Under the pieces are notes generated by a model. That model was not told the origin of the DNA, ran no database searches, and saw nothing but the letters and a program-made list of their open reading frames with translations. Source: Abditibacteriaceae bacterium (GTDB lineage: Bacteria > Armatimonadota > Abditibacteriia > Abditibacteriales > Abditibacteriaceae). Taken from it: 64,000 nucleotides of DNA. Where the stretch lies: contig JANPJS010000016.1 of assembly GCA_031425655.1 (NCBI GenBank), positions 1 to 64,000 on the forward strand, in the 5' to 3' direction. A program made the translations under genes and the position numbers. Shown here in pieces: positions 2,039 through 49,226 of the stretch (its first letter is position 1; each line of letters starts with the position of its first letter).

Positions 2039-2258
2039 GAAGCTGTCTGAGAATAGCCATTAATCGTGAGTTGAGCCGCTTTTAATAGGACGCGGAGCTT
2101 CGCTTTCCTGCCCAGAGGGCGCCCGAAACAGCTTTGAAGGCGCGGTTTTGCCGAACGAAATCCGCGAAAATCAGCGCACAACGTCCGCGCAGCGAAGCTC
2201 CGCGTCCCATTGAAAAGTCTTCGCTGTTAGTAGTCATGAATTTTCAGACGGTTTCTTA
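2039..2258. mobile_element. MITE-like element, family A copy 1
   Basis: Terminal IR GAAGCTGTCTGAGAAT / ATTTTCAGACGGTTTC-TTA, internal IR GGACGCGGAGCTTCGCT / AGCGAAGCTCCGCGTCC; recurs at 13017, 24735 and 44667. Confidence 0.85.
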
Positions 2259-2275
2259 GGAAACTGGAGTTAATT

Positions 2276-4504
2276 ATGCGTTTTAGCTGTTTGGCGAGTG
2301 TCATTCTGCTGGCTTTGTGCAGTTCGGCTTTTGCGCAAGCGCCGCGCGTGGAAGATGAATTTGTCGGGCCGTTCGCGTCGTGGGCGAACCTCAAACGCGA
2401 TTATCAGGCCGTTGGCGACGGCGTGGCCGACGACAGCGCGGCCTTGCAAAAAGCCTTAGACGACTTGAAAGTAGACGGCAAGCCCAAAGTGCTTTATCTG
2501 CCCAAAGGCACTTATCGCATCACCAAAGGCTTGCAGATGATTTCGCACATTTACTTCGGCGTTTTGGGCGAAGACCCCGCGAATACAACCATCAAATGGG
2601 ACGGCGCGCCCGGCGGCACCATGCTGTTTTGCAACGGCGCGCGTTACGGTCGTTTTGGCCGCATAACGTGGGACGGCAGCGGCAAAGCCGAAACCGCCGT
2701 TGACCACGATTGGGACAGCCAGACGCCCAACGCCAACTCGCACAACGAACACGCCGACGAAGTTTTCAAGGATGTCGGCTTTGGCATTCGCGGCGGCAAA
2801 CCGCACTTCATGGATGCCGAATGCGCGGTTTTGCGCTGCAAGTTTTTGCGCTGTTCCAAAGCCGGCGTCAGCATCGAAAGCTTCAACGCGCTCGACTGGT
2901 GGATTTGGCATTCTTATTTTGAAGACTGCTTTGTCGGCGTCACCAACGACCCCGGCGCCGGGCATTTTCACGTCTACGAAAGCCTGTTCAAGAACTCAAC
3001 CGAAAGCGACCTCAAACTCAGTCACTGCTCGTATTTCAGCATTCGCGGCAACATTAGCATCGGCTCCAAAGCCTTTTACACCGGCCAATGGCGCGACTGC
3101 GCGGCGCAAGTGACGCTGCAAGGCAACACGATCCTTGACCCGACCGGCCCGACGCCGATTCAGCACGGCAATCACGGCGGCTTTTTGATGCTGGATAACG
3201 TCGTCAAAAGCACCAAAGACAAGGCCAAAGGCGAACACGTCGTTTACGTCAATAAAGGCACTTCGCTGCTCGCCGTCGGCAACACGTTTACCCAGCCAGA
3301 CGCTATTGACATCGCCGACGCTAAATCCGGCGCGCCTTTGATTTTAGCCGGCAAAGTCGTGGCGCCGAACGCCGTAAAAACGGCCCTGCCCGTTTTGCCG
3401 GGCACGCCGCCGAATTTAGCACGCCGCGTTTTTGAAGTCGCGCCCGGCGCCGATGGAACTGTGATTCAAAAGGCCATTGACGACGCCTCAGCGCTCAAAG
3501 GGCAGCGCGCGGTCGTGCATTTGCCGCCCGGCACTTATCCGATTGCCAAAACCCTTGTGGTTCCAGCCAACGCCGGCGTGCAAATCGTCGGCGACGGCTT
3601 CGCCACGCGATTGCAATGGAAAGGCGACGACCAAACGCCGCTTTTGCGTTTAATGGGGCCGGCGCGCGCAGTTTTGCGCGAAATGGAGATTCAAGCCGGC
3701 GCGGCTTCGGCGGGCATCGTCGTTGAAAAATGCGACCAGCCGAGCGCACGAGTTTGGATGGAGCAAGGCGATGTTTCGGATGCGCAAAACGTCGGCTTGT
3801 TAGTGGACGGTTTGGCCAATACCGACGTGAGCCTGCACAACTTTTATCACAGCGGCAACAAAGGCGTGGCGGTCAAAGTTATCGGCGCGCCGGGCACCAA
3901 AAACACGGCGCGCACGGTGATTTTTGGCGGCGCTTCCAGCAGCAACAATTTATCTTACGACGTGCAAAACGGTGGGCGATTGATGGCGCAGGACATCTGG
4001 TATGAAGGCGCGCCGCCGCGCTTTATTCACTTCACCGACAAGAGTTCCGGCACTTTCACGCTCAACGGCGCCACGACGGCCAGCGGGCGTCCCGGCCCCA
4101 ACGCCAACGCCGATGACCCCAATTTCGCCGCGCTGGAATTTAACGGCTTCAAGGGCGATGCGACCCTGCTCAACGTCAACATCGGCACTAATTTAACGGT
4201 CGCCGGCGACAGCCGCGAAACGCGGCTGCTGGGAATGCTGCACGGGGGCGAAAACGCGGTCGTTAATCGCTCGACGGGCGCCAAAGTCGCGCTTTTGGGC
4301 GGCAGCCAGGCTAAACCCGATGGCAGCGCGGCTGTGATTCCCAATCAGGGCAGCGCCGAACCCGCCTTTGTCTTAAAGATGCTGGAACAACTGCGCACCG
4401 ACCGCCCGCGCCCCTTGAACGCTCTCAAAGGCGGCGTAACCGATGTGCGTTTTTATCGCGTTACGGTTTCCGGCGGGCAAACGGGTGTTCACCTCACGCG
4501 CTGA
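2276..4504 (+). CDS. Secreted right-handed beta-helix carbohydrate-active protein (pectate-lyase-3 / GH55-like, two beta-helix modules)
   Basis: Signal peptide; AVGDGVADDSAALQKALD...LYLPKGTYRI and a second IQKAIDDA...VHLPPGTYPI cap motif; GGAG RBS. Confidence 0.8.
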   Translation: MRFSCLASVILLALCSSAFAQAPRVEDEFVGPFASWANLKRDYQAVGDGVADDSAALQKALDDLKVDGKPKVLYLPKGTYRITKGLQMISHIYFGVLGEDPANTTIKWDGAPGGTMLFCNGARYGRFGRITWDGSGKAETAVDHDWDSQTPNANSHNEHADEVFKDVGFGIRGGKPHFMDAECAVLRCKFLRCSKAGVSIESFNALDWWIWHSYFEDCFVGVTNDPGAGHFHVYESLFKNSTESDLKLSHCSYFSIRGNISIGSKAFYTGQWRDCAAQVTLQGNTILDPTGPTPIQHGNHGGFLMLDNVVKSTKDKAKGEHVVYVNKGTSLLAVGNTFTQPDAIDIADAKSGAPLILAGKVVAPNAVKTALPVLPGTPPNLARRVFEVAPGADGTVIQKAIDDASALKGQRAVVHLPPGTYPIAKTLVVPANAGVQIVGDGFATRLQWKGDDQTPLLRLMGPARAVLREMEIQAGAASAGIVVEKCDQPSARVWMEQGDVSDAQNVGLLVDGLANTDVSLHNFYHSGNKGVAVKVIGAPGTKNTARTVIFGGASSSNNLSYDVQNGGRLMAQDIWYEGAPPRFIHFTDKSSGTFTLNGATTASGRPGPNANADDPNFAALEFNGFKGDATLLNVNIGTNLTVAGDSRETRLLGMLHGGENAVVNRSTGAKVALLGGSQAKPDGSAAVIPNQGSAEPAFVLKMLEQLRTDRPRPLNALKGGVTDVRFYRVTVSGGQTGVHLTR

Positions 4505-5021
4505 CTGATCTTTCCTTGATTATGTAGACACGGAAAGAGAGGTTTTCCTGCTTCTGCTGCTCGATGGCGCCAGCCCACTTCTTGTTCCACTCGTCGGGTT
4601 TCAAGCGATAGCACCTGTCGAACCTGGTGCGCCAATCCAACTCCGCCACCAGTCCGAGCCGCTTCAAACCGCTCACGTTGGTCAGCGGCGTGGCTTGCAG
4701 CGAGAGCGCGACCCGGCGGTCTTTGGCAGCCCTTTCAGCCACCAATACGCAAACGCGCTCAGCCGAGAAAGCAAAACCAGAGGAATTACAACGGTTGCTG
4801 CGGTTACTCTTTATAGGAGTGGGCGCCCACCAAACATTGCGCCGATTCGGATAGGCTCTAAACCCATCATCAAGAGAGGAGACGGCACATCGGATCATGT
4901 ATGGTAATGAACTTGACCTCGTGAAAGTGTCAGGCAGTGCGAACAGCACCAATCTCACCGAAGCCGGCCCTGCGTCTTTTCGCAGCGCGAAGAGGAAAAG
5001 CATCTTTTCTCGCTCGCGCTG

Positions 5022-5135
5022 GTTTCCGCGCGTTATGTGCGTCTAACTTATCTCGATCATCACGACGCGAAAGTGCCATACTATTCGACATTCGCGTTCA
5101 CAACTGAGGCCGATGTTTACGCGCCGACTAAGTAA
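5022..5135 (+). pseudogene. Possible C-terminal remnant of a discoidin (F5/8 type C) domain gene
   Basis: Frame reads VSARYVRLTYLDHHDAKVPYYSTFAFTTEADVYAPTK*, like the ARYVRL...ExxVY end of discoidin domains; no clear start. Confidence 0.35.
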
Positions 5136-5179
5136 GCGACCTGCCTCAGATGCGAAAGCGACGCAGAAGACTCTCTCCT

Positions 5180-8100
5180 ATGAAAAAATGGACTAAATTT
5201 GCCGTCCTTCTTGTTGTCGCTTTCCTCTGCTTTGGTTCCGTGCTCTACGGCTGGGCCGTAATGCTGCGCCCGCCCCTCACCGCTGCGCCCATAAGTTATT
5301 CGCAGGAAAAGCTCGCGGAGATTAAACAACTGCGCGATGTCAGTTTCGATCCGAAAAACCCGCCGGTTGTGCAGCGCGATGTGGATTACGCGCAGGGCAA
5401 AGCAGCGCCGTGGTTTCCCAAAGGCGAATCGCCGATTTTAGCCGAGTTGGTCAAAGACAAAAAGCTGCCGCCGGTCGCCGAGCGCGTGGGGCCGGAGCCG
5501 GTCGTGCTCGAAGGCGTGGACGGCATCGGCAAATACGGCGGCACCTGGCTGCGCATCGCCAATGCGCCCGGCGATGTCGGCATCATTTCATGGCGGTTGT
5601 CGGGCGCCACTTTGGTGCGCTGGTCGCCGATGGGCTATCCAATTCGTCCGCACATCGCTAAATCGTGGACGGCCAGCCCCGACCGCCGCGAATGGACGTT
5701 CCATTTACGCAAAGGCATGAAATGGTCGGACGGACAGCCGCTCACCGCCAATGATGCCGTTTACTGGTGGCAAGCCGAACAATTGAAGATTGCCGCCACG
5801 CCGGTGCCGTGGATGACGGTAGCCGGAAAAATCGGCAAGCTGGTCAAGGTGGACGACTACACCATCAAGTTCGTCTTCCCCAAGCCGAACGGCGTGCTGC
5901 TCGAAAACCTCGTGCGGGCAACGCCGTTTTCGCCGCGCCATTACTTTGAGAAATACCATCCCGACTTGGGCGATAAGAAAACAAAAGAGGCGGCGATGGC
6001 GGCGCGCAGCCTGACTTCCGAGCGTGCGCTCTACACCGCATTGTCGGACTTTCGCAACCCGGAGTGTCCGCGTCTCTGGCCGTGGATTTATCGCACCTAC
6101 AAGTCCAGCCCGCCCGAAGGCTTCGTGCGCAATCCCTATTTCTGGGCGGTTGACCCGCAGGGCAATCAACTACCTTATGTAGATCGCATTTTGTTCGAGG
6201 TGAAAAGCCCGAAGCTGATTGCGCTAACCGCAGCCAGCGGCGACATCACCATGCAGGCGCGCCATCTCGCCTACGATAATTACACGATGCTCATGGAGAA
6301 TCGGGCGCGCAACCGCTATCAGGTTTATCACTGGTTTCCGGCATCGCGCTCGGCCTTCACGCTCTGGCCGAATAATAATCGCCGGGTTTTGCCCAACGAT
6401 GCCGTTTCGAAAAACAAAGCCACTTTGCTGGGCAATAAAACCTTTCGCCAGGCGCTGTCACTGGCGATCAACCGCCAACAAATTATCAAAGCCATCTACG
6501 CCGGCTACGGCGAGCCGGCGCAAATTGATCCAGGACGCGAATCGGAGTTTCACAGCGAAAACCTGATGAAGAGCTTCACAAAGTTCGACCCGGAGCGCGC
6601 GGGCCAGATGTTCGACGGGCTGGGGCTGGACAAACGCGACATCGAAGGAATGCGAACCTTCCCCGACGGTTCGCGCATGACCTGGTATATTGACTTCACC
6701 GACTTTACCGGCGAAGGCCCGGCGCAGTTCGTGGTGGACGATTGGGCCAAAGCCGGCGTTCGCGCCATCCACCGCGAACGCTCGCGCCCGCTCTGGACGA
6801 CGGAGAAAGCAGCCCTGCTGCACGATTTCAGTGTGTGGACGGGCGAAAGCGAATTCAATCCGCTGGTCGAGCCGCGCAGCTTCGTGGCGACTTATGGCGA
6901 ATCTCACTTCGCGCCGGCAACGGGCATCTGGTATCAAAAAGGCGGGCTTTACGGCGATCCGAAGGCGCTGCAAGGCGGCATCCAGCCACCCAAAAATAGC
7001 CCGATGCGCCGCGCCCAAGAGTTGCTACAACAAGCGCAGATGGCCCCAACCCGCGCGGCGCAAGTCAAGATTTTCAATCAAATTACGGACATCGCGGCGG
7101 ATAACGTGTGGTCTATCAGCATCGCCACACCGCCGCCGCAACTTTGCGTAGTCAGGGACGGCTTTCGTGGCGTGCCGCGCAACGTGATGTATGGCGCGTC
7201 CTACAATACGCCCGCCAACGCCGGCATCGAAACGTTTTATTTCGAAAAGCCGAAGGATTCGCCCGGCGCCATCGCGCAGATTAAAAAGGAGATGACTACG
7301 GTCACGTCGGAGACTGGAACGGTCAGCGCCGGCGTGGCTGAGGCGCCGAGCGGCGGCGGTTTGGGAAGGTTCGTCAAGCTCCTGATTTATGGCATTCTCG
7401 CGCTCGCTCTGCTGCTGGCGGCGGTGCGCCATCCCTATATCGGGCGGCGCATCCTCATCATGGTTCCGACGCTGCTGCTCATTTCGGTCGTGACGTTCGT
7501 GATTATTCAGCTTCCGCCCGGCGATTTCATCGAGACGCGCATCACCGAATTGCGCGCCACCGGCGACGAAGCCGCCATCGAGGAAGTGCAGCGTCTTTCG
7601 GAGATGTTCCACCTCGACGAGCCGCTCTGGCAACAATACTCGCGTTGGATGGGCCTCAAATGGTTCGTCACCTTCGACGAGGCCGACAAAGGTCTCTTGC
7701 AAGGCAATATGGGGCGCTCGATGGAAACGCAAAAATCGGTCAATGACATCGTCGGCGACCGCGTGATGTTGACGGTTTTAGTGTCGCTGGGCACGATACT
7801 CTTCACCTGGGCCATTGCGATGCCGATTGGCATTTATTCGGCGGTGCGCCAGTATTCGTGGGGCGACTACGTGTTGAGCTTCTTAGGCTTCATCGGGATG
7901 TGCGTGCCGAACTTCTTGCTGGGCATCATCCTGATGTATTGGAGCGGCAAATATCTCGGCGTCAACGTCACCGGGTTGTTTTCGCCCGAATACGCCGCGC
8001 AGCCCGAATGGACGTGGGGCAAGGTCGTGAATCTGCTACAGCACGTCTGGATACCAATCATCGTCATCGCTACGGCGGGCACGGCGGGCATGATCCGCGT

Positions 8101-8461
8101 CATGCGCGGCAATCTGCTTGACGAGCTTCGTAAGCCGTATGTGACAACAGCGATGGCGAAGGGCGTGCGGCCCTTCCGCCTGCTCATGAAATATCCGGTG
8201 CGGCTGGCGCTGAACCCGTTCATCTCCGGCATCGGCGGCATCTTCCCGCAACTGATTTCGGGCGGCGCCATCGTGGCGATTGTTCTCAGCCTGCCAATGG
8301 TCGGCCCGGTCATGCTGCAAGGCCTGATGACGCAGGATGTTTATCTCGCTGGCTCGATGCTGATGGTGCTCAGCCTGCTCGGCATCTTCGGCACGCTCGT
8401 TAGCGATTTGCTGCTGCTCTGGCTCGACCCGCGCATTCGCATGGAAGGAGGCTCGAAGTGA
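5180..8461 (+). CDS. ABC importer: family 5 substrate-binding protein fused to OppB/DppB-type permease (1093 aa)
   Basis: LPPVAERVGPEP, GKYGG, LRKGMKWSDGQPLTAND, NQLPYVDRI SBP motifs, then LPPGDF...YVTTAMAKGV EAA loop and WLDPRIR end; start taken at ATG 5180. Confidence 0.9.
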   Translation: MKKWTKFAVLLVVAFLCFGSVLYGWAVMLRPPLTAAPISYSQEKLAEIKQLRDVSFDPKNPPVVQRDVDYAQGKAAPWFPKGESPILAELVKDKKLPPVAERVGPEPVVLEGVDGIGKYGGTWLRIANAPGDVGIISWRLSGATLVRWSPMGYPIRPHIAKSWTASPDRREWTFHLRKGMKWSDGQPLTANDAVYWWQAEQLKIAATPVPWMTVAGKIGKLVKVDDYTIKFVFPKPNGVLLENLVRATPFSPRHYFEKYHPDLGDKKTKEAAMAARSLTSERALYTALSDFRNPECPRLWPWIYRTYKSSPPEGFVRNPYFWAVDPQGNQLPYVDRILFEVKSPKLIALTAASGDITMQARHLAYDNYTMLMENRARNRYQVYHWFPASRSAFTLWPNNNRRVLPNDAVSKNKATLLGNKTFRQALSLAINRQQIIKAIYAGYGEPAQIDPGRESEFHSENLMKSFTKFDPERAGQMFDGLGLDKRDIEGMRTFPDGSRMTWYIDFTDFTGEGPAQFVVDDWAKAGVRAIHRERSRPLWTTEKAALLHDFSVWTGESEFNPLVEPRSFVATYGESHFAPATGIWYQKGGLYGDPKALQGGIQPPKNSPMRRAQELLQQAQMAPTRAAQVKIFNQITDIAADNVWSISIATPPPQLCVVRDGFRGVPRNVMYGASYNTPANAGIETFYFEKPKDSPGAIAQIKKEMTTVTSETGTVSAGVAEAPSGGGLGRFVKLLIYGILALALLLAAVRHPYIGRRILIMVPTLLLISVVTFVIIQLPPGDFIETRITELRATGDEAAIEEVQRLSEMFHLDEPLWQQYSRWMGLKWFVTFDEADKGLLQGNMGRSMETQKSVNDIVGDRVMLTVLVSLGTILFTWAIAMPIGIYSAVRQYSWGDYVLSFLGFIGMCVPNFLLGIILMYWSGKYLGVNVTGLFSPEYAAQPEWTWGKVVNLLQHVWIPIIVIATAGTAGMIRVMRGNLLDELRKPYVTTAMAKGVRPFRLLMKYPVRLALNPFISGIGGIFPQLISGGAIVAIVLSLPMVGPVMLQGLMTQDVYLAGSMLMVLSLLGIFGTLVSDLLLLWLDPRIRMEGGSK

Positions 8462-9741: not shown

Positions 9742-9747
9742 ACGACA

Positions 9748-9838
9748 AAACACAAAGAACACAAAGGGAACACAAAGAACACGAAAAGAATTGAATTGCT
9801 TTTGTGTCCTTTGTGATTTCTTTGTGTTCTTTGTGTTT
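9748..9838. repeat. Inverted array of ACACAAAGA-like short repeats
   Basis: AACACAAAG(A) units followed by (T)CTTTGTGT units forming a long hairpin between two ABC genes. Confidence 0.85.
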
Positions 9839-9860
9839 AATCAAATGTGTTTAATCAAAA

Positions 9861-10901: not shown

Positions 10902-10926
10902 AATCGCCGGGCACGAACGAGAAACC

Positions 10927-11955: not shown

Positions 11956-12080
11956 TGAAAGGGCGGTTGATCTCGAAGGGAGACTCATTGAGCGGGAGGC
12001 GTCGGCTCTGAATGTTCGGCTTACAACGATGGTTTGGACGATGGCTTATTCTTGGGTGGGAGCGGTGTTAGTCTCAGGCT

Positions 12081-13019: not shown

Positions 13020-13241
13020 GAAGCTGTCTGAAAATAGCTATCAATCCTGAGTTGAGCCGCTTTTCAATAGGACGCGGAGCTTCGCTTTTCTGCCCAGAGG
13101 GCGCCCGAAACGGCTTTGAAGGCGCGGTTTTCCAGAAAAAAATCCGCGAAAATCCGCGCACAACGTCCGCGTAGCGAAGCTCCGCGTCCTATTGAAAAAT
13201 ATTCGCTTTGAGGCTTTGACGAATTCTCAGACTGATTCTTA
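13017..13241. mobile_element. MITE-like element, family A copy 2
   Basis: Highly similar to 2039-2258; its ends coincide with the stop codons of both convergent flanking genes. Confidence 0.85.
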
Positions 13242-24063: not shown

Positions 24064-24275
24064 GAAGTCTCACCGGACAATCGCATTAGAAAATTGGGAG
24101 GCCAAAGCGGATGTCATTCCGAGCGGGCGCCCTTTGGGCAGGGTCGAGGAATCTTAATTTTCGGTGCAACGGCAAGATTCCTCGACTCCAAAACTCGCTG
24201 AGGCTCGTTTTTTCGCTCGGAATGACACTTTCTTTGGCTCTTCAAAATCCTAATACAATTGTCCTGGGAAGTCTC
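24064..24275. repeat. Composite palindromic element (outer imperfect IR around a GTCATTCCGAGC...GAGGAATCT REP doublet)
   Basis: Inner TGTCATTCCGAGC..GTCGAGGAATCT / AGATTCCTCGAC..GCTCGGAATGACA at 24112-24227; outer GGACAAT..GCCAAAG / CTTTGGC..ATTGTCC. Confidence 0.8.
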
Positions 24276-24734: not shown

Positions 24735-24941
24735 TTAGAATCTGTTCTGAGAATAGCCATTAATCGTGAGTTGAGCCGCTTTCAATGGCACGCGGATTTT
24801 ATACGCGGACACAGCTTTGAAGGCGCGGTTTTACCGAAAGAAATCAGCGAGAATCAGCGCACAACGTCCGCGTAGCGAAGCTCCGCGTCCCATTAAAAAG
24901 TCTTCGGTGTTAGTAGTCATGAATTCTCAGACGGCTTCTTA
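24735..24941. mobile_element. MITE-like element, family A copy 3
   Basis: Same arms as 2039-2258 but lacks the 17-bp insert in its core. Confidence 0.85.
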
Positions 24942-25064: not shown

Positions 25065-25204
25065 TGACCTCCCGATTAAAATCGAGGTCTACCGCTACCA
25101 AGCCGATCTTCGTCGGCTGAACCAAGCAAGCAGTGAGAGTCCGCGCCGGGTGCCCTCCGGGCGAGGGACTTCGTAACCATAGACCCCGATTAAAATCGGG
25201 GCCG
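25065..25204. repeat. REP-like pair of CCCGATTAAAATCG(A/G)G hairpins
   Basis: GACCTCCCGATTAAAATCGAGGTCTAC and ATAGACCCCGATTAAAATCGGGGCC, resembling GTAG-type REPs. Confidence 0.65.
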
Positions 25205-34824: not shown

Positions 34825-34852
34825 CTCCTAAGCGACTTTTATCGGCAATCAC

Positions 34853-36016: not shown

Positions 36017-36078
36017 ACGGCGTTAAACGCTGCGTGGACGGCACTTGAGCCTCGGAATTACCTCTCGGAGACATTATC

Positions 36079-36519: not shown

Positions 36520-36555
36520 CGAGGTCATTGTCGTGCAACAGAGACAGGACTGTCT

Positions 36556-36704: not shown

Positions 36705-36785
36705 GAAATTGTTTCCCGACGTTTTGCTGTATTTGTGACCCGTGGCCCTGCCATCTCCACGGTCGCTCCCATTAGAGGTTTCAGG

Positions 36786-40799: not shown

Positions 40800-40807
40800 A
40801 CCAAAAG

Positions 40808-40851
40808 AAAAGAAAAGCGCCGTCCTCAATTGAGGACGGCGCTTTTCTTTT
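40808..40851. terminator. Bidirectional intrinsic terminator
   Basis: AAAAGAAAAGCGCCGTCCTCA-AT-TGAGGACGGCGCTTTTCTTTT between convergent genes. Confidence 0.9.
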
Positions 40852-40861
40852 GTCCAGCCTG

Positions 40862-43045
40862 TCAGCGCAGCTTGGCTTTCAAGCGCGGCGCGTTGCGTTC
40901 GTCGTCCAAAGCTTTGCGGGTTTCGGCTAAGGCGATGACTTTCCAGCCGTGCGGCGGCAGCGTCACGTTGAACGTGGTTTGGCCGCCGCGAATCGAGGAT
41001 GGCGCTTCGGTTTCGGTCGTTAAATCAAGTGCGGTTTTGGCGGCGCCTTCGACCGTGGCTCGCACGCCGGCTTCGCGCGAAGCTGTGTTAAACAGCCCGA
41101 CCAAAAGCGCGCCTTTGGGCGAACGGCGCAAGGCCACGCGAACGACTTCAGGGCCGGCGATGTTTTGCGCGCCGCTGTTGGTAGCCGTCGCGGCGCGCAG
41201 TTGCACAAGGCGAGGTGCGACGTAATCGGCGATGCCCGCATAGAATTTCTGCCACGGCAACAGCTTTTGGCTGGTGACGGGAGCGGTGGGAGCCAGTGCG
41301 CTGCCCGGCGCGGCTGCGGTGGGAAGGGGCGAAGTGGCACCTTCGCTCATTTTCAGGCGATGCGGCAGCCACACGACTTCGCCTTTGCCCAACACGTTGA
41401 TAACAACTGCCGGTGAGCCGTCTTCGAGTTTGGCGACACTGCGCGAGCCAATCGGCACGAAAGCGCCTTTTTCGGTTTTGGCCTGCGACGACATCGTGGG
41501 CGGTTTCAGCGTTACGGTCAGGCTTTGCTCGACCGGGACGGAAGTGCCGCGTCCGGTTCCGAAAATCCACGGATCGTCTAAGATTATCGCGCTGTTTTTG
41601 GGCGCCAGCGGCGCGACGGAGGCGCCGACCAAAGTTTCCAGACGCCACGGCGCTTGGTTGCCTTGCTCGTCCAATTGCGGCGCGCCTTCGAGATAAATAC
41701 GCGCTCCGGCACGCGCCAGCGCTTCAAGGCGCAAAACGGCGGCGTTGCTGATGCGCTCGCCCAAACGCAGCGAAAACGGTTCGGGCGCGCCGCCTTTTTC
41801 CGGCAACGCGGAGCGCGCCAGCAAAGGAATGCGCCCGATGGAGCGCAAGCGATGGGCAAGCAAAATAGGACTTTCGTCTTCAATGGTTCCGGCGCCGTCC
41901 AGAGGAAAGGCTAAACCGGCGTCTTCCAATGTCACCGAGCCTGTCCACAGCGAGGCGTTGCGTTTCAGGAAAGCATCGAAGTTTGGCGTCGTGTTTTCGC
42001 TCGTGTCCGGCGATTTGCCCGAAAGAATCAGGCCGCTGGCACCGCCCATCAAAGCATTCAGCCACAAATCGCCGTTCGATGCGTTATCCAACTCAACCCA
42101 AACCGGCAGATCGAAAAACAACTGTTCTTCGGCGATTTTGCGCGCGACTTTGAGCGGCCACAGGCATTCGGGCGCGTTGTTGGCGCGAATCACCACGGCA
42201 TCGCATTGTGCCGCCACGAAATCCAAGTCGCGCGCGGCTTGCGCCGGCGAAGCGATGGCATCCACTTGAAAAATCAGCGCGGCGCCGGGCGCGGCAGCAT
42301 CGAGAAGGGGACGAAGCTGCGCTAAAACATTGGCCGCGTTCGCCGAAAGCGGCGCGCCGTTGCCCGACGGCAACGAAAAGCCCGCGAAACCGCGCTGTCC
42401 GCCCGCTTGCGCGTCCTGCACGCGCCGCGCGACTTCGCTACGCAGCGCCGCGAAATCGTAATTCGGCGCCAGCATTTCGCGCAGAGTCGGCACTGGCAGC
42501 GTGCGCCACGATAAATAAAGGTTGTTCGGAGCGCGCCACGTCGCAAGCGGCGCTTTGGCTTTGCGACCGAAATCGCGCTTCAAATTGGGCAAAAACAGCG
42601 GCCAATCCGGCGATGATGGCGCGTTGTGCATTGCATGAACCCACGGCGCGCCGTTGAAAAGCCAGAATCCCGGCCCGTGTTCGACTCCGGGCACTGTCAG
42701 CGCATCGCTTGGCGCGTCGGCGGTGAGCGGCGTCGCGGCGCGGTTGGTCGTGAGCAGGCGGAATTCGTAGTTGCCGGGATCGGCTTCAACTTGCACGTTG
42801 GTCTGCCAGCGCCCGTTCACCAGCGTCAGTTGGCGTGTGACATCGGCGATGCGCGTGGCGCGTCCGGCCTCGAATAAGCCGACACGCACACGGGGCGAAG
42901 GCAGCACCGCGCCGGGCGGCAAACTCAAAGTGACTCGTCCATCGGCGCCCAAAACCGAAGGCGCGACTTCCAAAGCGGGCCACGTCTGGGCCGAGAGCGG
43001 CGCGGCGCAAAGCAAAACGAGAAGTAAACGAGTAAGAAATTTCAC
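40862..43045 (-). CDS. Secreted hypothetical protein, possibly with a beta-galactosidase-trimerisation-like C-terminal domain
   Basis: Signal peptide; EDGSPAVVINVLGKGEVVWL motif; long ORF with typical codon usage. Confidence 0.65.
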   Translation of the reverse strand: MKFLTRLLLVLLCAAPLSAQTWPALEVAPSVLGADGRVTLSLPPGAVLPSPRVRVGLFEAGRATRIADVTRQLTLVNGRWQTNVQVEADPGNYEFRLLTTNRAATPLTADAPSDALTVPGVEHGPGFWLFNGAPWVHAMHNAPSSPDWPLFLPNLKRDFGRKAKAPLATWRAPNNLYLSWRTLPVPTLREMLAPNYDFAALRSEVARRVQDAQAGGQRGFAGFSLPSGNGAPLSANAANVLAQLRPLLDAAAPGAALIFQVDAIASPAQAARDLDFVAAQCDAVVIRANNAPECLWPLKVARKIAEEQLFFDLPVWVELDNASNGDLWLNALMGGASGLILSGKSPDTSENTTPNFDAFLKRNASLWTGSVTLEDAGLAFPLDGAGTIEDESPILLAHRLRSIGRIPLLARSALPEKGGAPEPFSLRLGERISNAAVLRLEALARAGARIYLEGAPQLDEQGNQAPWRLETLVGASVAPLAPKNSAIILDDPWIFGTGRGTSVPVEQSLTVTLKPPTMSSQAKTEKGAFVPIGSRSVAKLEDGSPAVVINVLGKGEVVWLPHRLKMSEGATSPLPTAAAPGSALAPTAPVTSQKLLPWQKFYAGIADYVAPRLVQLRAATATNSGAQNIAGPEVVRVALRRSPKGALLVGLFNTASREAGVRATVEGAAKTALDLTTETEAPSSIRGGQTTFNVTLPPHGWKVIALAETRKALDDERNAPRLKAKLR

Positions 43046-43141
43046 AAAAACCTTTGAAAAGAAAATATCTGTGGCCAGACGCCGCAGCCCGCACGCGGTT
43101 CGCGGGGCATTTAAGCGTGGATTTGTCGGGCAGCGCCGACT

Positions 43142-43266
43142 TGACGATGGAACCCTCCCCTAACCCCTCCCGTTGGAGGGGAATTTACGCCCCTTGTGTT
43201 CAAACTTGAACTGAGATCGCCAAGTTCCCCTCCAACGGGAGGGGTTAGGGGAGGGTTCCACCGTCA
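43142..43266. repeat. REP doublet (42-bp inverted repeat)
   Basis: 43142-43183 pairs with 43225-43266 with one mismatch. Confidence 0.9.
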
Positions 43267-43336
43267 GCCTAATCAAGGTTATCGCCATGCCCAAAAGTTG
43301 ACACTTCGACGGCAAAACGAAACACTGTCCAAGATT

Positions 43337-43813
43337 ATGAGCAACGATAAAAACCTTAAAAACGAACTGTCGCGCCGCGAATTGATCGGCGGCGCCATTG
43401 CGGCTGGGCTGACGATAGGTGTTGCGGGTTGCGCATCGCAAGACACCGAATCGGCGGCGCCGGTCGCTGCGGCACCGGGCGCTGCGACACCGGGCGCTGC
43501 GGCACAGAGCGGCACCACGACTATTGTAGGCGGCGGCAAACTGCTCGCCGGCACCGCTTTACCGATTCAACTGCCCAACGGGCAGCCCGCCGTGCTTGTC
43601 AATCCCAAATCCGGCGCTCTGCTGGCGGTTTCGGCGCTTTGCACGCATTCCGGCTGCACCGTGGTCTGGAAAGACGCAGAGCAAAAACTGCACTGCCCGT
43701 GTCACGGCTCGGTTTTCGATGCCGCCGGCAAAGTTCAAACCGGCCCGGCCACAGCGCCTTTAGCCACTTTTAAGGTGCAAAAAAAGGGCGACGACGCGGT
43801 TCTCACCTTGTAA
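43337..43813 (+). CDS. Tat-exported Rieske 2Fe-2S lipoprotein (QcrA/PetC-like)
   Basis: SRRELI twin-arginine motif, VAGC lipobox, CTHSGC and CPCHGS; start reassigned to ATG 43337. Confidence 0.88.
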   Translation: MSNDKNLKNELSRRELIGGAIAAGLTIGVAGCASQDTESAAPVAAAPGAATPGAAAQSGTTTIVGGGKLLAGTALPIQLPNGQPAVLVNPKSGALLAVSALCTHSGCTVVWKDAEQKLHCPCHGSVFDAAGKVQTGPATAPLATFKVQKKGDDAVLTL

Positions 43814-43851
43814 ACCCTGTTTCACTTCGAGCAGTTTTCTCTTTTTCGGAC

Positions 43852-43881
43852 TTGCCACCGTTGCGCTGTGGTAGCTATAAT
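43852..43881 (+). promoter_or_regulatory. Putative sigma70 promoter
   Basis: TTGCCA-18 nt-TATAAT upstream of the gene at 43950. Confidence 0.5.
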
Positions 43882-43949
43882 GGCGATGTTCAGGTCGCCA
43901 TCGCAGCATTGCGAGCCGGCCCGAATCGTCAATTAAGGAGTTGTAACTG

Positions 43950-44669
43950 TTGCACTGGACACGCAAGACTATCATCGAACACATCAAGCAACTGCATTCT
44001 CAGGGAGCCGAACTCAACTATACCTCAGCCGAACGAGAACACTTGAATTTAGTGCGCGCCGCCGCCTGGCATTTTGGAACATGGCGCCAGGCTGTCGAGG
44101 CCGCCGAGGTCAATTACGAAGGTTTATCGAAGTATCGCCGCTGGAACCGCGAACGCATCGTCGAACGCATCAAAGAGTTGCACACGCAGGGCGCCGATCT
44201 CAGTTGGCGCTCCGTCAGCACCGAAGTTGACCCGCCTTTAGCCGCCGCCGCCTTGCGCGCCAACGGCTTTCCGAGTTGGCGCGAAGCCATTGCCGCCGCC
44301 GGACTCGACATTGACAACGTGGCGCGCTACCGCTTTTGGAACGAAGAGCGCGTCATCGCGGCGATTCGTGAATTGCAAGCCGCCGGACACCCTTTGTCGT
44401 CCAAAGCGATGCAAACCAGCGATCAATCGTTGTTTTGCGCGGCGCGGCGTCGTTTCGGCTCGTGGGACAAAGCCCTCGTCGCTGCGGGTTTCAACGTCGA
44501 GGAAATTCGTTTGCGCCGGCCAAAATCAGCGAAGCGAAAACTCAAAGCAAAGCCCGAAACCCATGCTAAAAACGGTGTTTCTCTCAATGGACACACCAAA
44601 AACGGACACGCCGAAAACGGACACGCCGGCGCTGTGAAACCACGTCGCAGGGTGGTGCTGGCGCGCTAA
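43950..44669 (+). CDS. Protein with three tandem W..E.I...I...FGSW..A..AAG repeats (homing-endonuclease-associated-repeat-like)
   Basis: Three ~62-aa repeats, basic tail; TAAGGAG RBS before TTG. Confidence 0.8.
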   Translation: MHWTRKTIIEHIKQLHSQGAELNYTSAEREHLNLVRAAAWHFGTWRQAVEAAEVNYEGLSKYRRWNRERIVERIKELHTQGADLSWRSVSTEVDPPLAAAALRANGFPSWREAIAAAGLDIDNVARYRFWNEERVIAAIRELQAAGHPLSSKAMQTSDQSLFCAARRRFGSWDKALVAAGFNVEEIRLRRPKSAKRKLKAKPETHAKNGVSLNGHTKNGHAENGHAGAVKPRRRVVLAR

Positions 44670-44878
44670 GAGTCTGTCTGAGAATTCGTTACAGACTAAC
44701 ACCAAAAACTTTTAATGGGACGCGGAGCTTCGCTACGCGGATTTCATGCGCGGATTCTCGCGGTTTTACAAAAGAAAATCAGCGAAAATCAGCGCACAAC
44801 GTCCGCGCAGCGAAGCTCCGCGTCCTATTAAAAAGCGACTCAACTCAGGATTAATGACTATTCTCAGACAGCTTCTTA
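44667..44878. mobile_element. MITE-like element, family A copy 4 (outer arms inverted)
   Basis: Arms are the reverse complement of those of copy 1; starts at the TAA stop of the upstream gene. Confidence 0.85.
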
Positions 44879-45070
44879 GATTTCGTATCATTGAAAAACG
44901 CAAAATGCGACAGGATTTTCAAGGAAGCAGCATTGATCTGCGCGAATCCGTGTCGTTTCGGGCGCCCTCTGGGCAGGGAACCCGTGTTCCATTTGGCGTT
45001 TCGAGATGATAAATACCGATTTCAGGCCCAAAATTCCCGCTTCGCCGCGTGTTGAACTAAACTGCACATC

Positions 45071-45907
45071 ATGCTTATTACCGTAGCGCACTCGCCGGAT
45101 TCGGACGATGCTTTCATGCATTACGCTTTGGCGCGTCACAAAATTGACACCGGCGGGCTGGAATTTCAGCACGTTTTGCAGGACATCGAAACGCTGAATC
45201 AGCGTGCCGCATCCGGCACTTACGAAGTCACGGCGATTTCGATTCACGCTTACGCTTATCTGGCCGATAAATATGCTCTGCTGCCGCACGGCGCTTCAAT
45301 GGGCGAAAATTACGGCCCGATGATCGTGGCGCGCGAAGCGTTTTCGCGCGAGACCATTAAAAATCAAACCGTCGCCGTGCCGGGTTTGATGACTTCGGCG
45401 TATTTGGCGCTCAAGCTTTTCGCGCCGGAAATCGCCACCGTCGTGATGCCTTTCGACGAGATTTTGCCCGCCGTCGAGCGCGGCGAAGTGGCCGCAGGTT
45501 TGCTCATCCACGAGGGCCAACTTACATATGGCGATGCCGGATTGCACAACGTCGTGGATTTGGGTGTTTGGTGGAGCGAGCAAACCGGCGGACTGCCGTT
45601 ACCGTTGGGCGGCAACGCCATCCGGCGCGATCTGGGGCCGGAATTAACCATCCAAGTTTCAGATTTGCTGCGCGAAAGCATTCGCTATGCGTTGGCGCAC
45701 CGCGAGGAAGCCTTAGACTACGCTCTGGAATTCGCGCGCGGCATGGAAGAACGGCCTCAACTGACCGACGAATTCGTCGGGATGTATGTCAATCAGCGCA
45801 CGCTCGATTATGGCGATGATGGCCGGCGTTCGGTGCAATTATTCTTAGATCGCGGCTTTGAATCCGGCGTGATTCCGCATCGCGTTGCTGTCGAATTTGC
45901 CGGATAA
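45071..45907 (+). CDS. mqnD: 1,4-dihydroxy-6-naphthoate synthase (futalosine menaquinone pathway)
   Basis: [40 protein letters not shown]. Confidence 0.9.
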
Positions 45908-45927
45908 ATTGTCGAACAGGAGACTTT

Positions 45928-46587
45928 ATGCCCAAAGTTGGCGTTTTGCTATCAGGCTGTGGCGTCGAGGACGGCAGCGAAGTTTACGAAGCAGTCCTCA
46001 CGATTTTGGCGCTCGAAAAAGCCGGCGCCGATTGGCAGGCCTTAGCGCCGGATACCGAGCAATCGCACGTCGTCAATCATTACAAAGGCGAGGAAAGCCG
46101 TCAGGAAACGCGCAACGTCTTGCCCGAAGCGGCGCGCATCGTGCGCGGCAAAGTCACCTCTGTCGGCGAAGTTTCGGCGCACGAAATTGACGCCTTAGTG
46201 ATTCCCGGCGGCTTCGGCGTGACTAAAAATCTGTGTTCCTTCGCCGCCGACGGCGTGAATGCCACGGTCAACCCTCACGTGCAGCGCTTGATTCAGGATT
46301 TGCACGGTCTGGGAAAACCGATTGGTGCCATTTGTGTCGCGCCGGTTCTGGTCGCTCTGGCATTGCGTGGACAAAACCTCACCATGACTGTCGGCAGCGA
46401 TGCCTCGACATCACTGGCGATTAACCGCCTCGACGCGCATCATCACATCGCCGCCGTGGACGAGATTTACATAGACGAGCGCAACAATGTCGTCTCGACG
46501 CCGGCTTTCATGCTGGCCAAAAGCCCCAGCGAAGCCGAGCCGGGCATCACCAAATTAGTGAACGCCGTCCTCAAATTGATTCCCTAA
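45928..46587 (+). CDS. elbB: ElbB-type glyoxalase (DJ-1/PfpI superfamily)
   Basis: LSGCGVEDGSEVYEAV, RNVLPEAARIVRG, PGGFG..KNL, KPIGAIC, STPAFM. Confidence 0.9.
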   Translation: MPKVGVLLSGCGVEDGSEVYEAVLTILALEKAGADWQALAPDTEQSHVVNHYKGEESRQETRNVLPEAARIVRGKVTSVGEVSAHEIDALVIPGGFGVTKNLCSFAADGVNATVNPHVQRLIQDLHGLGKPIGAICVAPVLVALALRGQNLTMTVGSDASTSLAINRLDAHHHIAAVDEIYIDERNNVVSTPAFMLAKSPSEAEPGITKLVNAVLKLIP

Positions 46588-46651
46588 AATCGAGAAAGGC
46601 CGGCTCGTTTCTTACGAGCCGGCCTCTTTTTGTCTTCCGAGGTTGTCCTTC

Positions 46652-46957
46652 ATGCCCGAATTCGTAACCATAGCGCAAGCCGATGACATCAAAGACGGCG
46701 CCGCGCGCTGCGTCACCGTGAATGCGAAAGAGTTGGCCATATTCCGCGTCGGCGACGATTTTTACGCGATTGACAACGAATGCTCGCACTACGGCGCAGC
46801 CCTGTGCGACGGTTGGACGGACGGCACCACCGTCACTTGCCCGTGGCACTGCTGGCAATTCGATATCACCAACGGCAAATGCCTGACGGTGGACGATTAC
46901 GACGTGACGGCCTACCCCATTCGCATCGAAAACGGCCAAGTTAAAGTGCAGATATGA
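46652..46957 (+). CDS. Rieske-type ferredoxin (NirD/dioxygenase ferredoxin-like)
   Basis: CSHYG and CPWH motifs, 101 aa. Confidence 0.88.
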   Translation: MPEFVTIAQADDIKDGAARCVTVNAKELAIFRVGDDFYAIDNECSHYGAALCDGWTDGTTVTCPWHCWQFDITNGKCLTVDDYDVTAYPIRIENGQVKVQI

Positions 46958-47106
46958 AGAGAATGTTGGTCACTTATCAGCTTAATCGTTCAATATCGCA
47001 GATTACACGGAATATTGCGGGATAATAAAGAGTTATCTTGCTGCGCGCGGTTTGGTGCGGTTGTGATACAATAAAGTCATCCAAAATCGCAATTCTGTAA
47101 CTACTT

Positions 47107-48387
47107 ATGGACACTCAACCAACCAACGAAAACGCCGATAGCGCTAATGAGGCGCAGCAACCCGCTGAAAATCCAGCGGGCAGTCTTCCGAATGCCGCCC
47201 CGACAGTTGCGAACAACACATCGCGTAAGAGCAACGCTGCTAAGGCAGCACCAAAGACCCCCAAAAAGCCGTCTGCATCTAAGAAATCGAAGCCTCGCAA
47301 GAAAGCCCCAGCACAAAAAATTACCAAATCACCGGGAGCTTCTAATTTCCGTCAAGAAGTGCAACGACCTTTCCCTCGTGCCACTTTAGATGCGGCGCTA
47401 CAGGTGGCTGCACAAATAAAAAGTCTGAACGGCGGCAATCCTTGGGACACAGCCGAAGTAGCGAAGGCTTTCGGCATGAGTGTGCAAAACACGAAATTTT
47501 ATTACTTGACGGCCTCTTCGCGTGATTTTGGATTAACAACGGGAACGAGAAATACACCGAAGATAGAATTAACGGATTTAGGGAGGAGCATAGTTTATGC
47601 TCCTGATCCACAAGCCGAGCATGAGAAAAAGATTGAAGCTTTTCTAAGCGTGGAAACATTCAGGAAAGTTTTGGAGCATTATAAAGGTAGCGCGTTGCCT
47701 GAGATGAAGTATTTAGGCAATACGCTCGAAAAAGAATTTGGCCTGCATCCCTCAGTCCATGAAGAGTTCGCAACGCTATTCCGCCAGAATTGCCAAGATT
47801 TAGGCATAGAAGCAGGTTTTGATGAATTACAAAACATTGGAACTGGAAAACCTTCGGCTGGCCCCACGACCGTTATGCTGGGCGAACCCAAAGGAGCAAC
47901 AAAAGCGACGTTAAAGGCTTTTGTCATAATGCCGTTTGTAGAAAGAAATGATAGCCATCCCAAAGGTTTCTTTTCCGAAGTATTGCGTAGCTTGATTACA
48001 CCTTCTGCGATTGAAGCGGGATTTTCCGTAGAAACGGCCAACAGGCAAGGCAGTGACGTTATTCAATCCACGATTATCAACGACTTGTTGGAAGCAGACT
48101 TAGTTATCGCAGACCTAACAGCACACAACCCCAATGTGCTTTTTGAGCTTGGGGTTAGGATGGCTCACGACAAACCCGTAGCTTTAATCAAATCCACAGG
48201 GACAGGAAAAATATTCGATGTTGATAACATGCTGCGAGTGGTGGAGTATGATGCCAATATGTGGCCTTCGACTATCGAAAAGGACTTGCCGAAGTTGAGA
48301 GACCATATCAAAGGAACGTGGGACAATAGGAACACTAACCAATCGTATATGAAAATACTCCGTAAAGGACAAACGGGAGGTAGCTAA
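47107..48387 (+). CDS. Integron cassette protein: disordered N-terminus, winged-helix-like domain, C-terminal NDT/TIR-like domain
   Basis: AFVIMPF...ADLVIADLTAHNPNVLFELGVR...KP motif; more AT-rich than flanks; followed by attC. Confidence 0.75.
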   Translation: MDTQPTNENADSANEAQQPAENPAGSLPNAAPTVANNTSRKSNAAKAAPKTPKKPSASKKSKPRKKAPAQKITKSPGASNFRQEVQRPFPRATLDAALQVAAQIKSLNGGNPWDTAEVAKAFGMSVQNTKFYYLTASSRDFGLTTGTRNTPKIELTDLGRSIVYAPDPQAEHEKKIEAFLSVETFRKVLEHYKGSALPEMKYLGNTLEKEFGLHPSVHEEFATLFRQNCQDLGIEAGFDELQNIGTGKPSAGPTTVMLGEPKGATKATLKAFVIMPFVERNDSHPKGFFSEVLRSLITPSAIEAGFSVETANRQGSDVIQSTIINDLLEADLVIADLTAHNPNVLFELGVRMAHDKPVALIKSTGTGKIFDVDNMLRVVEYDANMWPSTIEKDLPKLRDHIKGTWDNRNTNQSYMKILRKGQTGGS

Positions 48388-48412
48388 GAGAGTGTGCTAC
48401 TCCCTAACAGCC

Positions 48413-48516
48413 GCCGAACAAGGCGCTGCACCCGACCGCCTGCAGCTTCGTTCCCTTCGCTCGTTCCTCGCTCTGGTCTCTGCGCTTCCGGCGGCGGGTG
48501 AGCTTGATCGTTGGGA
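48413..48516 (+). mobile_element. Integron attC site 1
   Basis: GCCGAAC-AAGGCGCTGCACCCGACCGCC ... GGCGGCGGGTGAGCTTGATC-GTTGGGA, imperfect palindrome with R and L boxes. Confidence 0.85.
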
Positions 48517-48564
48517 CGCTTGCGCGCGGCGTTGCTCGAAACCCAAATTTTCAGATAAACTTGA

Positions 48565-48861
48565 ATGGTGGAATTCGAGTGGGACGAAGACAAGAACGAA
48601 TCAAATATCGAAAAGCACGGCTTCGATTTTGAAGACGCTTCCGAAGTCTTTGATAGCCCGATGCTCGTCGCACTCGACACGCGGCCAGATTACGGAGAAG
48701 ACCGCTGGATTGGTCTGGGTTTGCTGGAGCATCGTGTCGTAGTCGTGGTTTATACTTATCGTGATTCTGATAAAATTCGCGTCATCTCAATGCGAAAGGC
48801 GTTGCAACATGAAAGATTCCAATATGAAGAGTTCCTCCGTAACCGATTGGGAACGGATTGA
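48565..48861 (+). CDS. brnT: BrnT-family toxin
   Basis: FEWDEDKNESNIEKHGFDF, YGEDRW, IRVISMRKA. Confidence 0.92.
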   Translation: MVEFEWDEDKNESNIEKHGFDFEDASEVFDSPMLVALDTRPDYGEDRWIGLGLLEHRVVVVVYTYRDSDKIRVISMRKALQHERFQYEEFLRNRLGTD

Positions 48862-49078
48862 CAAACTCACTGACGAACAAATAGATACTTCAGACATTTC
48901 GCCTTTGGATGCTGATTTCTTTTCTCGCGCCACATTGCAGATGCCGAGCAAATCTACCGTCGTGTTGAACGTGGATGCGGATGTTCTCGAATGGTTCCAA
49001 GCACAAGGCGAAAAATCAAAAGAGAGAATGAACGCCGCATTGCGTATCTATGTGGAAGCGCACAAACGGGCGGCGTAA
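48809..49078 (+). CDS. brnA: BrnA-family antitoxin
   Basis: TDWERI..IDTSDIS, VDADVLEWFQAQG...RMNAALR. Confidence 0.9.
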   Translation: MKDSNMKSSSVTDWERIDKLTDEQIDTSDISPLDADFFSRATLQMPSKSTVVLNVDADVLEWFQAQGEKSKERMNAALRIYVEAHKRAA

Positions 49079-49092
49079 CGTCTTAACAAGCG

Positions 49093-49226
49093 ACACGACA
49101 AGGCACTGCACCACCTGCCCAAAGGGCGCCCGGCCTCTGCCCAGAGGGCGCCCCGCTTCGTTCCCTTCGCTCGTGCCTCGCTTCGGTCTCTGCGCTTCCG
49201 GCGGCGGGTGAGCTTGGTCGTTAGGA
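49093..49226 (+). mobile_element. Integron attC site 2 (left arm disrupted by two 17-bp inserts)
   Basis: Nearly identical to attC 1 in its right two-thirds, ends GGTGAGCTTGGTCGTTAGGA. Confidence 0.8.

Follow-up and report, generated by a model that had tools for sequence, protein, structure and literature searches.

A sequence of 17 bp recurs inside several hairpin-forming repeats of the 64,000-nucleotide stretch of an Abditibacteriaceae genome analysed here (the window), and the question raised by this locus is what so short a sequence could be and by what means it reaches new sites. The initial annotation had read it as a mobile insert of a size below that of MITEs, present in both orientations and free of target duplication, and in this it was right: the sequence belongs to a non-coding, non-autonomous mobile unit of 19–24 nt that enters new sites by replacement.

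Sequence, copies and surroundings of the unit

All six exact 17-mers noticed at the outset were recovered on their respective strands (2108-2124, 13090-13106, 24125-24141, 44960-44976, 49115-49131 and 49137-49153), together with the variant at 25148-25163, while 100 shuffles gave a mean of 0.61 and a maximum of 3 matches even with 3 mismatches allowed. A genome-wide count, as proposed by the initial annotation, yielded 147 exact copies against 0.006 expected under an order-3 Markov model, and 321 near copies which were grouped by their flanks into 40 clusters. The repeat is real; its true unit is however 20 nt long and not 17, consisting of a variable base, C, the 17-mer (position 13 of which is also A or G) and G. 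Across the size range the core can be written as n-C-C-T-GCCC-loop-GGGC-R-CCCG. The copies and empty sites in the window are as follows:

2106..2125, + strand: 20-nt unit TCCTGCCCAGAGGGCGCCCG in a MITE-like repeat, replacing a 5-mer (CGCGG in the sibling empties)
13088..13107, + strand: 20-nt unit with T as second base, same site in a second MITE copy
24124..24143, - strand: 20-nt unit whose loop is AAA, within one arm of a REP of GTCATTC type (the 5-mer reads CTTCG in the empty sibling)
24804..24808, + strand: empty target 5-mer CGCGG in a sibling MITE, read against the two filled MITE copies
25147..25166, - strand: variant 20-nt unit (loop GGA, position 13 A) lying in a REP of RAYT type; against 19 empty siblings the net change is +15
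44736..44740, + strand: empty target 5-mer CGCGG in a sibling MITE (this type of site is filled elsewhere in the genome by a 24-nt sibling element)
44959..44978, - strand: 20-nt unit in an ACACGG-type repeat
48433..48445, + strand: attC-like site 1 with both targets empty, CGACC (48433-48437) and TGCAG (48441-48445), 3 bp apart
49113..49132, + strand: 20-nt unit in place of CGACC in attC-like site 2
49136..49155, + strand: second 20-nt unit (T + 17-mer + CG) in place of TGCAG, 3 bp after the first

The hairpin of the unit is weak (4-bp stem, -3.4 kcal/mol, z -0.95), its ends do not pair and terminal inverted repeats are absent. The basal stem pair covaries, being G-C or A-T in 42 of 44 distinct 19-mers although the search pattern permitted all four pairings, a count to be read with the copies not being independent of one another. 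The loop is exchangeable between copies, each genome holds few alleles, and in this genome loop positions 1 and 3 are about 95% fixed. At the level of reads, a Logan unitig (run X1) covers 48795-49205 with zero differences across both copies in attC-like site 2; since X1 may be the source sample, this agreement is an assembly check only. An Rfam search of the window returned only a tRNA.

The core is present in 24 of 27 genomes of the family, with zero copies in G004, G007 and G041, as well as in other Armatimonadota families, in Chloroflexota including Thermomicrobiales, and in Opitutales records; a search of a plasmid collection gave no meaningful match. This genome and two congeners, all fragmented MAGs of 85–97% completeness, hold 281, 151 and 52 copies, and among relatives the numbers range over 81 (G019), 78 (G059), 59 (G009), 36 (G011), 5 (G008) and none (G004).

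Replacement of host bases and comparison with known elements

An empty sibling was available for 169 of 311 copies, and the net length change among these was +15 in 131 and +14 in 26, even though the tie-break of the script favoured +13. Five host bases are thereby replaced in the usual case, which makes exact the earlier suggestion that a few were lost. The first replaced base is C in 74 of the 77 clean junction classes and in 94% of 51 collapsed targets, and G at the Chloroflexota sites checked; a further 32 of 109 junction classes do not fit the five-base split cleanly. At the other end the joint is exact, the terminal G being element-derived in 65 of 69 classes irrespective of the fifth host base. 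The first base of the unit is variable and site-dependent (T 39, C 15, A 15 and G 0 in 69 classes), and it depends on the left neighbour (p=2.5e-4) and not on the internal alleles (p=0.77 and 0.85). One target site is occupied by either a 20-mer or a 24-mer with identical ends. These figures are to be read with the caution that most empty sites are paralogues and that copies within amplified host repeats are not independent events; for the window repeats, the orthologous position in G003 lacks the entire host repeat.

The empty siblings in the two MITEs and in attC-like site 1 are real, and the two filled MITE copies, which share a junction class, plausibly go back to one event as had been suspected. 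The same five-base rule is followed in TyrS, a Calx-beta repeat, a phage portal pair, a Chloroflexota repeat (G045) and self-nested copies. A 20-mer adds net 15 bases and reading frames therefore survive: TyrS gains five in-frame residues at a site that is empty in all three congeners, a phage portal protein likewise gains five, and the empty state of the filled Calx-beta repeat was read from its paralogues.

The unit has a strong preference for folded or repeat DNA (REP-like repeats, attC-like sites, tRNA genes and itself), with 227 of 321 copies being repeat-flanked as compared with 1139 of 5559 random intergenic positions. The placement inside hairpin elements first remarked upon is hence a strong enrichment and not a confinement, as ordinary genes and phage genes are entered too. 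Among 52 folded empty targets the replaced 5-mer had no fixed place in host stem or loop, and no strand bias was found relative to transcription (58:54 intergenic, 16:20 within long ORFs) or to GC skew.

A literature search that did not take in the repeat consensuses listed by Di Nocera 2013 and Quentin 2018 gave no description of this element, in agreement with the initial annotation; a described analogue does exist, to judge by likeness, in the small dispersed repeats (SDRs) of cyanobacteria. These were reportedly described by Elhai et al. 2008 (Genome Res 18:1484) as 21–27 nt long, with a shared fold, self-nesting and a stem kept by compensatory change. The unit appears SDR-like in being very short, in having filled and empty sites, in lying inside other repeats and itself and in its covarying stem. 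SDR1-8 of Nostocaceae are the closest known case: mobile repeats of very small size, to which no enzyme is assigned in the accounts consulted (PMC5861425, PMC4390886, PMC3116915), where they are reported only from Nostocaceae and SDR5 inserts precisely inside another repeat, the single octamer HIP1. By these descriptions in citing papers, the unit differs in its spread over Abditibacteriaceae, other Armatimonadota, Chloroflexota and Opitutales records, and in replacing five bases at many unrelated sites.

With REP/REPIN-RAYT systems, as far as the cited descriptions go (PMC3116915, PMC8266576, PMC6006769, PMC3733652), the unit shares a short hairpin, an unpaired tetranucleotide-like foot, a high copy number and a mostly extragenic, sometimes in-frame placement. 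It differs in lacking a GTAG or CGTC tag, in its 4-bp stem against the 7–20 bp of the REP descriptor, and in that it is not arranged round a RAYT gene, parasitises REPs and replaces bases. Prokaryotic MITEs and Rickettsia palindromic elements (RPEs) are likewise non-autonomous, and RPEs add an in-frame peptide to unrelated proteins; unlike them, the unit has neither terminal inverted repeats nor target duplication, and its 20 nt compare with the roughly 150 nt of RPEs in the account cited (PMC10969869).

How the unit may be moved

The reading we favour, with a little more confidence than doubt, is that of a non-autonomous single-strand hairpin inserted by a nick and strand transfer. The unit would move as DNA, probably as a folded single strand, and a trans-acting nicking and strand-transfer enzyme would read the 4-bp hairpin and the CCCG end. 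The target strand would be cut just before the C (or the G at the checked Chloroflexota sites) and again 5 nt further, and the donor strand would be joined in place of the removed 5 nt. Replication or repair would then fix the other strand, one base being added or miscopied at the 5' joint. HUH enzymes, in the account cited, cleave folded ssDNA and carry out strand transfer where a short guide directs them (PMC8266576). Our guess is an enzyme taken over from host repeats, of HUH/Y1 type or another covalent strand transferase like it. Against this, described HUH insertion removes, to our knowledge, no target bases; the weakness of the hairpin and the lack of a fixed place for the replaced 5-mer in host stems or loops also count against the reading.

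The source locus beside an RT, retron or RAYT/HUH gene that had been envisaged was not found, no enzyme gene was tied to the unit and no master copy turned up among copies from subsets of G005-G024, in G011 (about 36 copies) or in the low-copy genomes. The near-fixation of loop positions 1 and 3 nevertheless suits a few master templates better than free copying from copy to copy. Clustering of 372 genes near copies, based on home-made gene calls, revealed no dedicated enzyme family, and a variable-gap scan for long cargo forms in phages gave mostly chance matches. RAYT/Y1 as the mover was rejected: these enzymes have their own REPs and their gene counts are unrelated to copies of the unit (Y1 genes/copies 1/36 in G011, 1/81 in G019, 5/0 in G004 and 0/5 in G008). 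Y1 loci were flanked by the unit in none of 18 in relatives (20 fetched, 2 without an ORF call) and none of 6, inspected by eye, in this genome; two Y1 genes are broken by the unit, which lies in only 2 of 12 split Y1 loci. A small GIY-YIG nuclease was also set aside, being found in 0 of 14 genomes of family f15 and commonly in unit-free families (one protein query, 1e-10).

Templated synthesis from a master RNA or DNA, by target-primed reverse transcription or a primase-polymerase, is an unlikely alternative. A nick would prime copying and the displaced 5 nt would be trimmed, as in prime editing. The exact 3' joint with a single variable base at the other, and the few alleles in each genome, are in line with it; the complement of that base's spectrum matches A-first untemplated addition, and target-primed retrotransposition is known to give fixed target deletions. 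However, no RVT_1 match exists in this genome or the two congeners, fragmented as these MAGs are, and the family's common RT has no tblastn match here and yet occurs in the copy-free G004, G007 and G041. The lack of transcription strand bias and of any unique context shared by the copies of low-copy genomes also speaks against it. Of the templated insertion first proposed (from an RT, HUH-nuclease or repair product), neither an RT in this genome nor an adjoining source locus or enzyme gene was found; with no RT found, the unit is set apart from the products of retrons, DGRs and group II introns. The family RT itself looks retron-like from its neighbour genes.

Topoisomerase IB or tyrosine-recombinase chemistry, in which cuts 5 nt apart free a short oligonucleotide and the covalent 3' end captures a hairpin one, is improbable. 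Topo IB is known to produce short deletions and join foreign ends in vitro, and it is carried by 20 of 26 genomes of the family, by G045 (Chloroflexota) and, outside the family, by 6 of 12 element-rich genomes as compared with 60 of 286 in the phylum sample, an overlap confounded by kinship. On the other hand, it was not found in G059 (98% complete, 78 copies), G210, G246, G039, G025 or G091, this genome has only a truncated remnant, and many unit-free genomes carry it (G004, G007, G041 and most of family f31).

IS110 junctions and the remaining alternatives

In this genome each of the 19 IS110 junctions lies directly against one half of the unit. The IS has a transposase with a Transposase_20 domain (PF02371, E 2.7e-16), a CT core and a non-coding end upstream of the gene, and in this end a predicted bridge RNA carries both the left and the right target guide, spelling the unit. 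In sister copies the guides change to match three target classes, other repeats included. IS110 is the sole long cargo found between unit halves, in an assembly whose contigs break at repeats. By sequence, then, the IS appears to have been retargeted to the unit as a landing site and does not move it. With IS621 and ISPpu9, the REP-targeting IS110 bridge recombinases, the passenger shares domain, core and guide layout and is an ordinary member as far as the cited accounts describe them (PMC11208160, bioRxiv 10.1101/2025.01.17.633520); it differs in that the programmed target here is itself a 20-nt mobile unit inside repeats, a third tier of parasitism. This comparison describes the passenger and not the unit.

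That the unit is a footprint or passenger of this IS110, as the junctions and guides might suggest, is largely refuted and very improbable. IS110 excision is scarless and insertion requires a pre-existing target in the source cited (PMC11208160), the IS was not found in the single-contig G011 (36 copies) or the near-closed G009 (59 copies), sister copies target other repeats with matching guides, and the unit sits inside transposase genes of the same clade (L171, L198).

Equally hard to credit is an immobile unit, a module of one longer repeat family spread via gene conversion. Most copies do lie in repeats and many share one junction with up to about 20 others; against this stand the 40 flank clusters, the 51 distinct targets with clean empties and, decisively, single insertions without a common flank in TyrS, Calx-beta repeats, tRNA genes, IS200-type tnpA genes and phage genes. 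That an oligonucleotide was captured while Ku/LigD joined the ends of a break, or following cleavage by NucS (end joining typically leaves one variable junction base, NucS 5-nt overhangs), is refuted in the genomes searched: Ku was found in none of the 26 family genomes and in none of 14 from family f15, NucS in 1 of 26 by a weak match. A library or assembly artefact is excluded by alleles specific to lineages, by copies that keep the frame of coding sequences and by the programming of an IS against the unit, as well as by the occurrence in many independent genomes and the empty TyrS sites. Either explanation has next to no probability.

Even the dissemination of REPs is called poorly understood in the source cited (PMC8266576). 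On the spread of mobile repeats some 20 bases long, the present case places hard constraints that earlier ones seem to lack: the number of replaced bases is fixed at five, the 3' joint is exact, the first base follows a rule, loops can be exchanged, and close relatives are at hand both with the unit and without it. These bring the mover within reach of comparative genomics and of tests in a cultured host. It is conceivable, and we put it forward tentatively, that a natural DNA-editing reaction not described before and shared across phyla exchanges a patch of exactly 5 nt for a short hairpin oligonucleotide, with only loose demands on the site; it would be free of homology, keep frames, preferentially mark mobile and repeat DNA and plant landing pads that IS110 has come to use, and it would be carried out by a recombinase or writer of a new kind. 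Through the unit, essential and phage proteins acquire insertions of five residues, and in the IS110 an RNA-guided element may have been reprogrammed to target a parasite of 20 bases.

Boundaries of the unit and replacement of host bases

All six exact 17-mers of the initial annotation, and its variant copy, were confirmed at their positions in the window, for which shuffled sequence gave at most three matches even with three mismatches allowed. The genome assembly (G000) totals 5.98 Mb on 327 contigs at 97% completeness; across it the exact 17-mer occurs 147 times against 0.006 copies expected, and 336 copies are found with up to two mismatches. Base frequencies around the copies reveal a C kept before the 17-mer, a G kept after it and a second A/G position. 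The core of the element first described stands and its 17-bp length does not: the true unit is 20 nt, n-C-CTGCCC-ARA-GGGC-R-CCC-G, with 321 genomic copies under a stricter core definition, and a 19-nt allele without the T also exists.

Filled copies were paired through their flanks with empty siblings, the same host site without the unit, and such a sibling was found for 169 of the 311 full-flank copies in this genome. Of these pairs, 131 differ by a net +15, 26 by +14 and 12 by another value; the tie-break of the script leaned to +13, and +15 was therefore not imposed. Exact replacement of five host bases fits 77 of 109 distinct junction classes, and 32 show no clean fit to a five-base split; the "few host bases" of the earlier reading are thus exactly five in the clean classes. 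In 74 of these 77, replacement starts at a C. Of the 69 clean +15 classes, 65 have a unit with a terminal G, regardless of the fifth host base; across all 69 the unit begins with T (39), C (15) or A (15) and never G. It is this terminal G, together with the variable first base and the flanking C, that defines the unit as 20 nt. Every window site with a clear sibling follows the rule, attC 2 holding two replacements 3 bp apart; the sibling of the unit at 44959 is ambiguous. In a Chloroflexota genome (G045) the replaced 5-mer begins with G and the unit with TG or TA, and the second base of the unit therefore tends to track the host base at the start of that 5-mer.

Other features of the window and genome
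43950-44669: 239-aa ORF with homing-endonuclease-associated repeat (PF18780), directly before the empty MITE
47107-49700: attC-like array, no integrase ORF seen in its vicinity; it holds a 426-aa ORF, a cassette for a BrnA-type antitoxin and other small ORFs; sister IS110s target a sequence that matches its attC-like core
61004-63781: 925-aa ORF, peptidase M28 domain fused to an aminoglycoside 3-N-acetyltransferase-like domain
Contigs C103 and C182: putative integron-integrase-like genes, two in all

Range, alleles and landing sites

The core pattern is present in 24 of 27 Abditibacteriaceae genomes (0-281 copies each; reversed-pattern control, 0-1 matches per genome), and a related pattern reaches at least five copies in four other Armatimonadota families, in which rich and unit-free genomes stand side by side. 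Among the matches listed, records of Thermomicrobiales, other Chloroflexota and Opitutales contain the exact 18-mer, in most cases within host repeats of the same kinds; some single matches look like chance. The isolated hairpin folds weakly, and the evidence for it is therefore covariation rather than energy: the basal stem pair is swapped between alleles, G-C or A-T in 42 of 44 distinct 19-mers, with which a hand count of the first 150 related-pattern matches listed agrees, and the loop is exchanged among 3-nt, 6-nt and 7-nt forms. In G000 a 24-nt sibling (12 copies) and the 20-mer share one MITE site as target. This sibling and a 21-nt one (5 copies) have an A-T basal pair, a CCCCG end and the targets of the 20-nt unit (C27, C73, C145, C150, C228, C231 and others in G000). 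Six loci of unpublished G047 are counted in the 18-mer, 19-mer and nested-copy tallies, and no claim depends on that genome alone.

Repeat DNA lies within 12 nt of 227 of the 321 copies in G000, compared with 1139 of 5559 intergenic positions drawn at random, which bears out the early view that the element sits inside other hairpins; the remaining copies, inspected by eye, are mostly in REP-like repeats too. Copy flanks form 40 clusters, and 51 distinct targets have clean empties. Unique sites are occupied as well. In a putative TyrS gene, so named from its sequence without a domain scan, the unit is exactly +15 nt relative to 3/3 congeners; a further copy, within a Calx-beta-type repeat, stands opposite a 5-nt gap in paralogues. 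A prohead protease and a portal protein encoded on phage contigs include it as the in-frame peptide (P/A)AQRAP, the filled and empty members of one portal pair differing by +15. Copies also lie inside a tRNA-like gene of G000, two IS200-type tnpA genes and, three times, one tRNA array of G013, where only two strict matches occur genome-wide. At four Chloroflexota loci a copy is nested in an older copy with five bases replaced, and G021 has similar nesting.

The tRNA array (L223/L248, G013:C45:80000-83100) comprises at least 17 genes, and all three units are on the tRNA sense strand, as in other tRNA-like matches (G000 C61, L433). Frameshifts near the HUH motif affect many of the family's IS200-type tnpA genes (L236-L247); the unit accounts for only 2 of 12. 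Unit-bearing host REPs within long ORFs (G000 C114:6600, C267:5876, C51, C128, C211) may be translated, for example as the N-terminus of the ORF on C114. Upstream of a small GIY-YIG gene on C253 (L235), the left half of a filled REP is present twice as a perfect palindrome, the two halves meeting at the unit's loop.

An IS110-family element aimed at the unit

Half-units at G000 contig ends trace to a collapsed IS110-family element of about ten copies, its middle unassembled. All 19 junctions (9 left, 10 right) adjoin the unit at the CT core in its loop; at one left junction the rest of the IS is absent. The non-coding end upstream of the IS110 gene holds both target guides, which covary with the target in three classes across relatives and metagenome contigs. 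Members of the clade share their ends, while their guides between them match three or more different repeats, attC-like sites included.

Target classes and ends of the insertion sequences
Class 1: 20-nt unit; G000, 5/5 loci read in G016, G006, L193 and L197 (right junction only)
Class 2: CCCCT/CTCCC-type REP; relatives or metagenome contigs
Class 3: attC-like site, like those of the window; relatives or metagenome contigs
IS110 ends in G000: C15, C23, C58, C65, C66, C70, C71, C88, C97, C101, C154, C170, C189, C205, C212, C220, C248, C302
Further IS110-clade loci: L174, L176, L194
Second collapsed IS in G000, 8 ends seen, varied insertion sites: C63, C126, C133, C134, C135, C144, C213, C248; also L170

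One copy in G003 has the same guide at an imperfect site; in that genome the second IS interrupts the IS110. The IS110 was not found in unit-rich G011 or G009, and it is therefore a user of the unit rather than its source, in agreement with IS110 biology as excerpts of PMC11208160 describe it.

Candidate movers and known relatives

The copies display the replacement geometry, a site-dependent first base, conserved structure and a preference for repeats, with no strand bias relative to transcription. The unit would move at the DNA level by a single-strand process, in which a nick would fall ahead of the first replaced base, 5 nt would be lost from the target and an exact 3' joint would be made, the favoured candidate for the joining step being strand transfer by a covalent enzyme of HUH/Y1 or similar type that the unit would borrow. 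The case for such an enzyme is that RAYT-type REPs, attC-like sites and tRNA genes make up many of the hosts, and that HUH enzymes act on folded single strands (excerpts of PMC8266576). Against this reading, Y1 genes do not vary in number with the unit or lie beside it, and loop bases that are nearly fixed point to a small number of templates.

Templated synthesis accounts well for the variable first base, but no reverse transcriptase was found in G000; of the sources first proposed for a templated insertion (a reverse transcriptase, an HUH nuclease or a repair product), it is the HUH type that is favoured. Most family genomes encode a conserved reverse transcriptase of ~480-530 aa with a long N-terminal extension (L410-L428), retron-like by reading and often after a BRCT-like gene end; it was not found in G000. 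Type IB topoisomerase overlaps partly with the unit's distribution, but is absent from three unit-rich genomes of one genus and truncated in G000 (L511, G000:C157:7865-8188), the gene being intact in most family genomes. Searches for Ku, NucS and a small GIY-YIG nuclease did not find them in the genomes that would require them.

The unit did not pass the membership tests for REP/REPIN or for MITE, the latter in keeping with the initial remark that the element is too small for a MITE. It works like cyanobacterial SDRs as excerpts of citing papers describe them, a comparison by description. The literature search, which covered article text, found no description of the unit. Overall, the 20-nt unit is real and its kind is barely described; this example contributes a 5-for-20 rule that is quantified and holds across phyla, empty sites at orthologous positions, and a bridge-RNA IS aimed at the unit.
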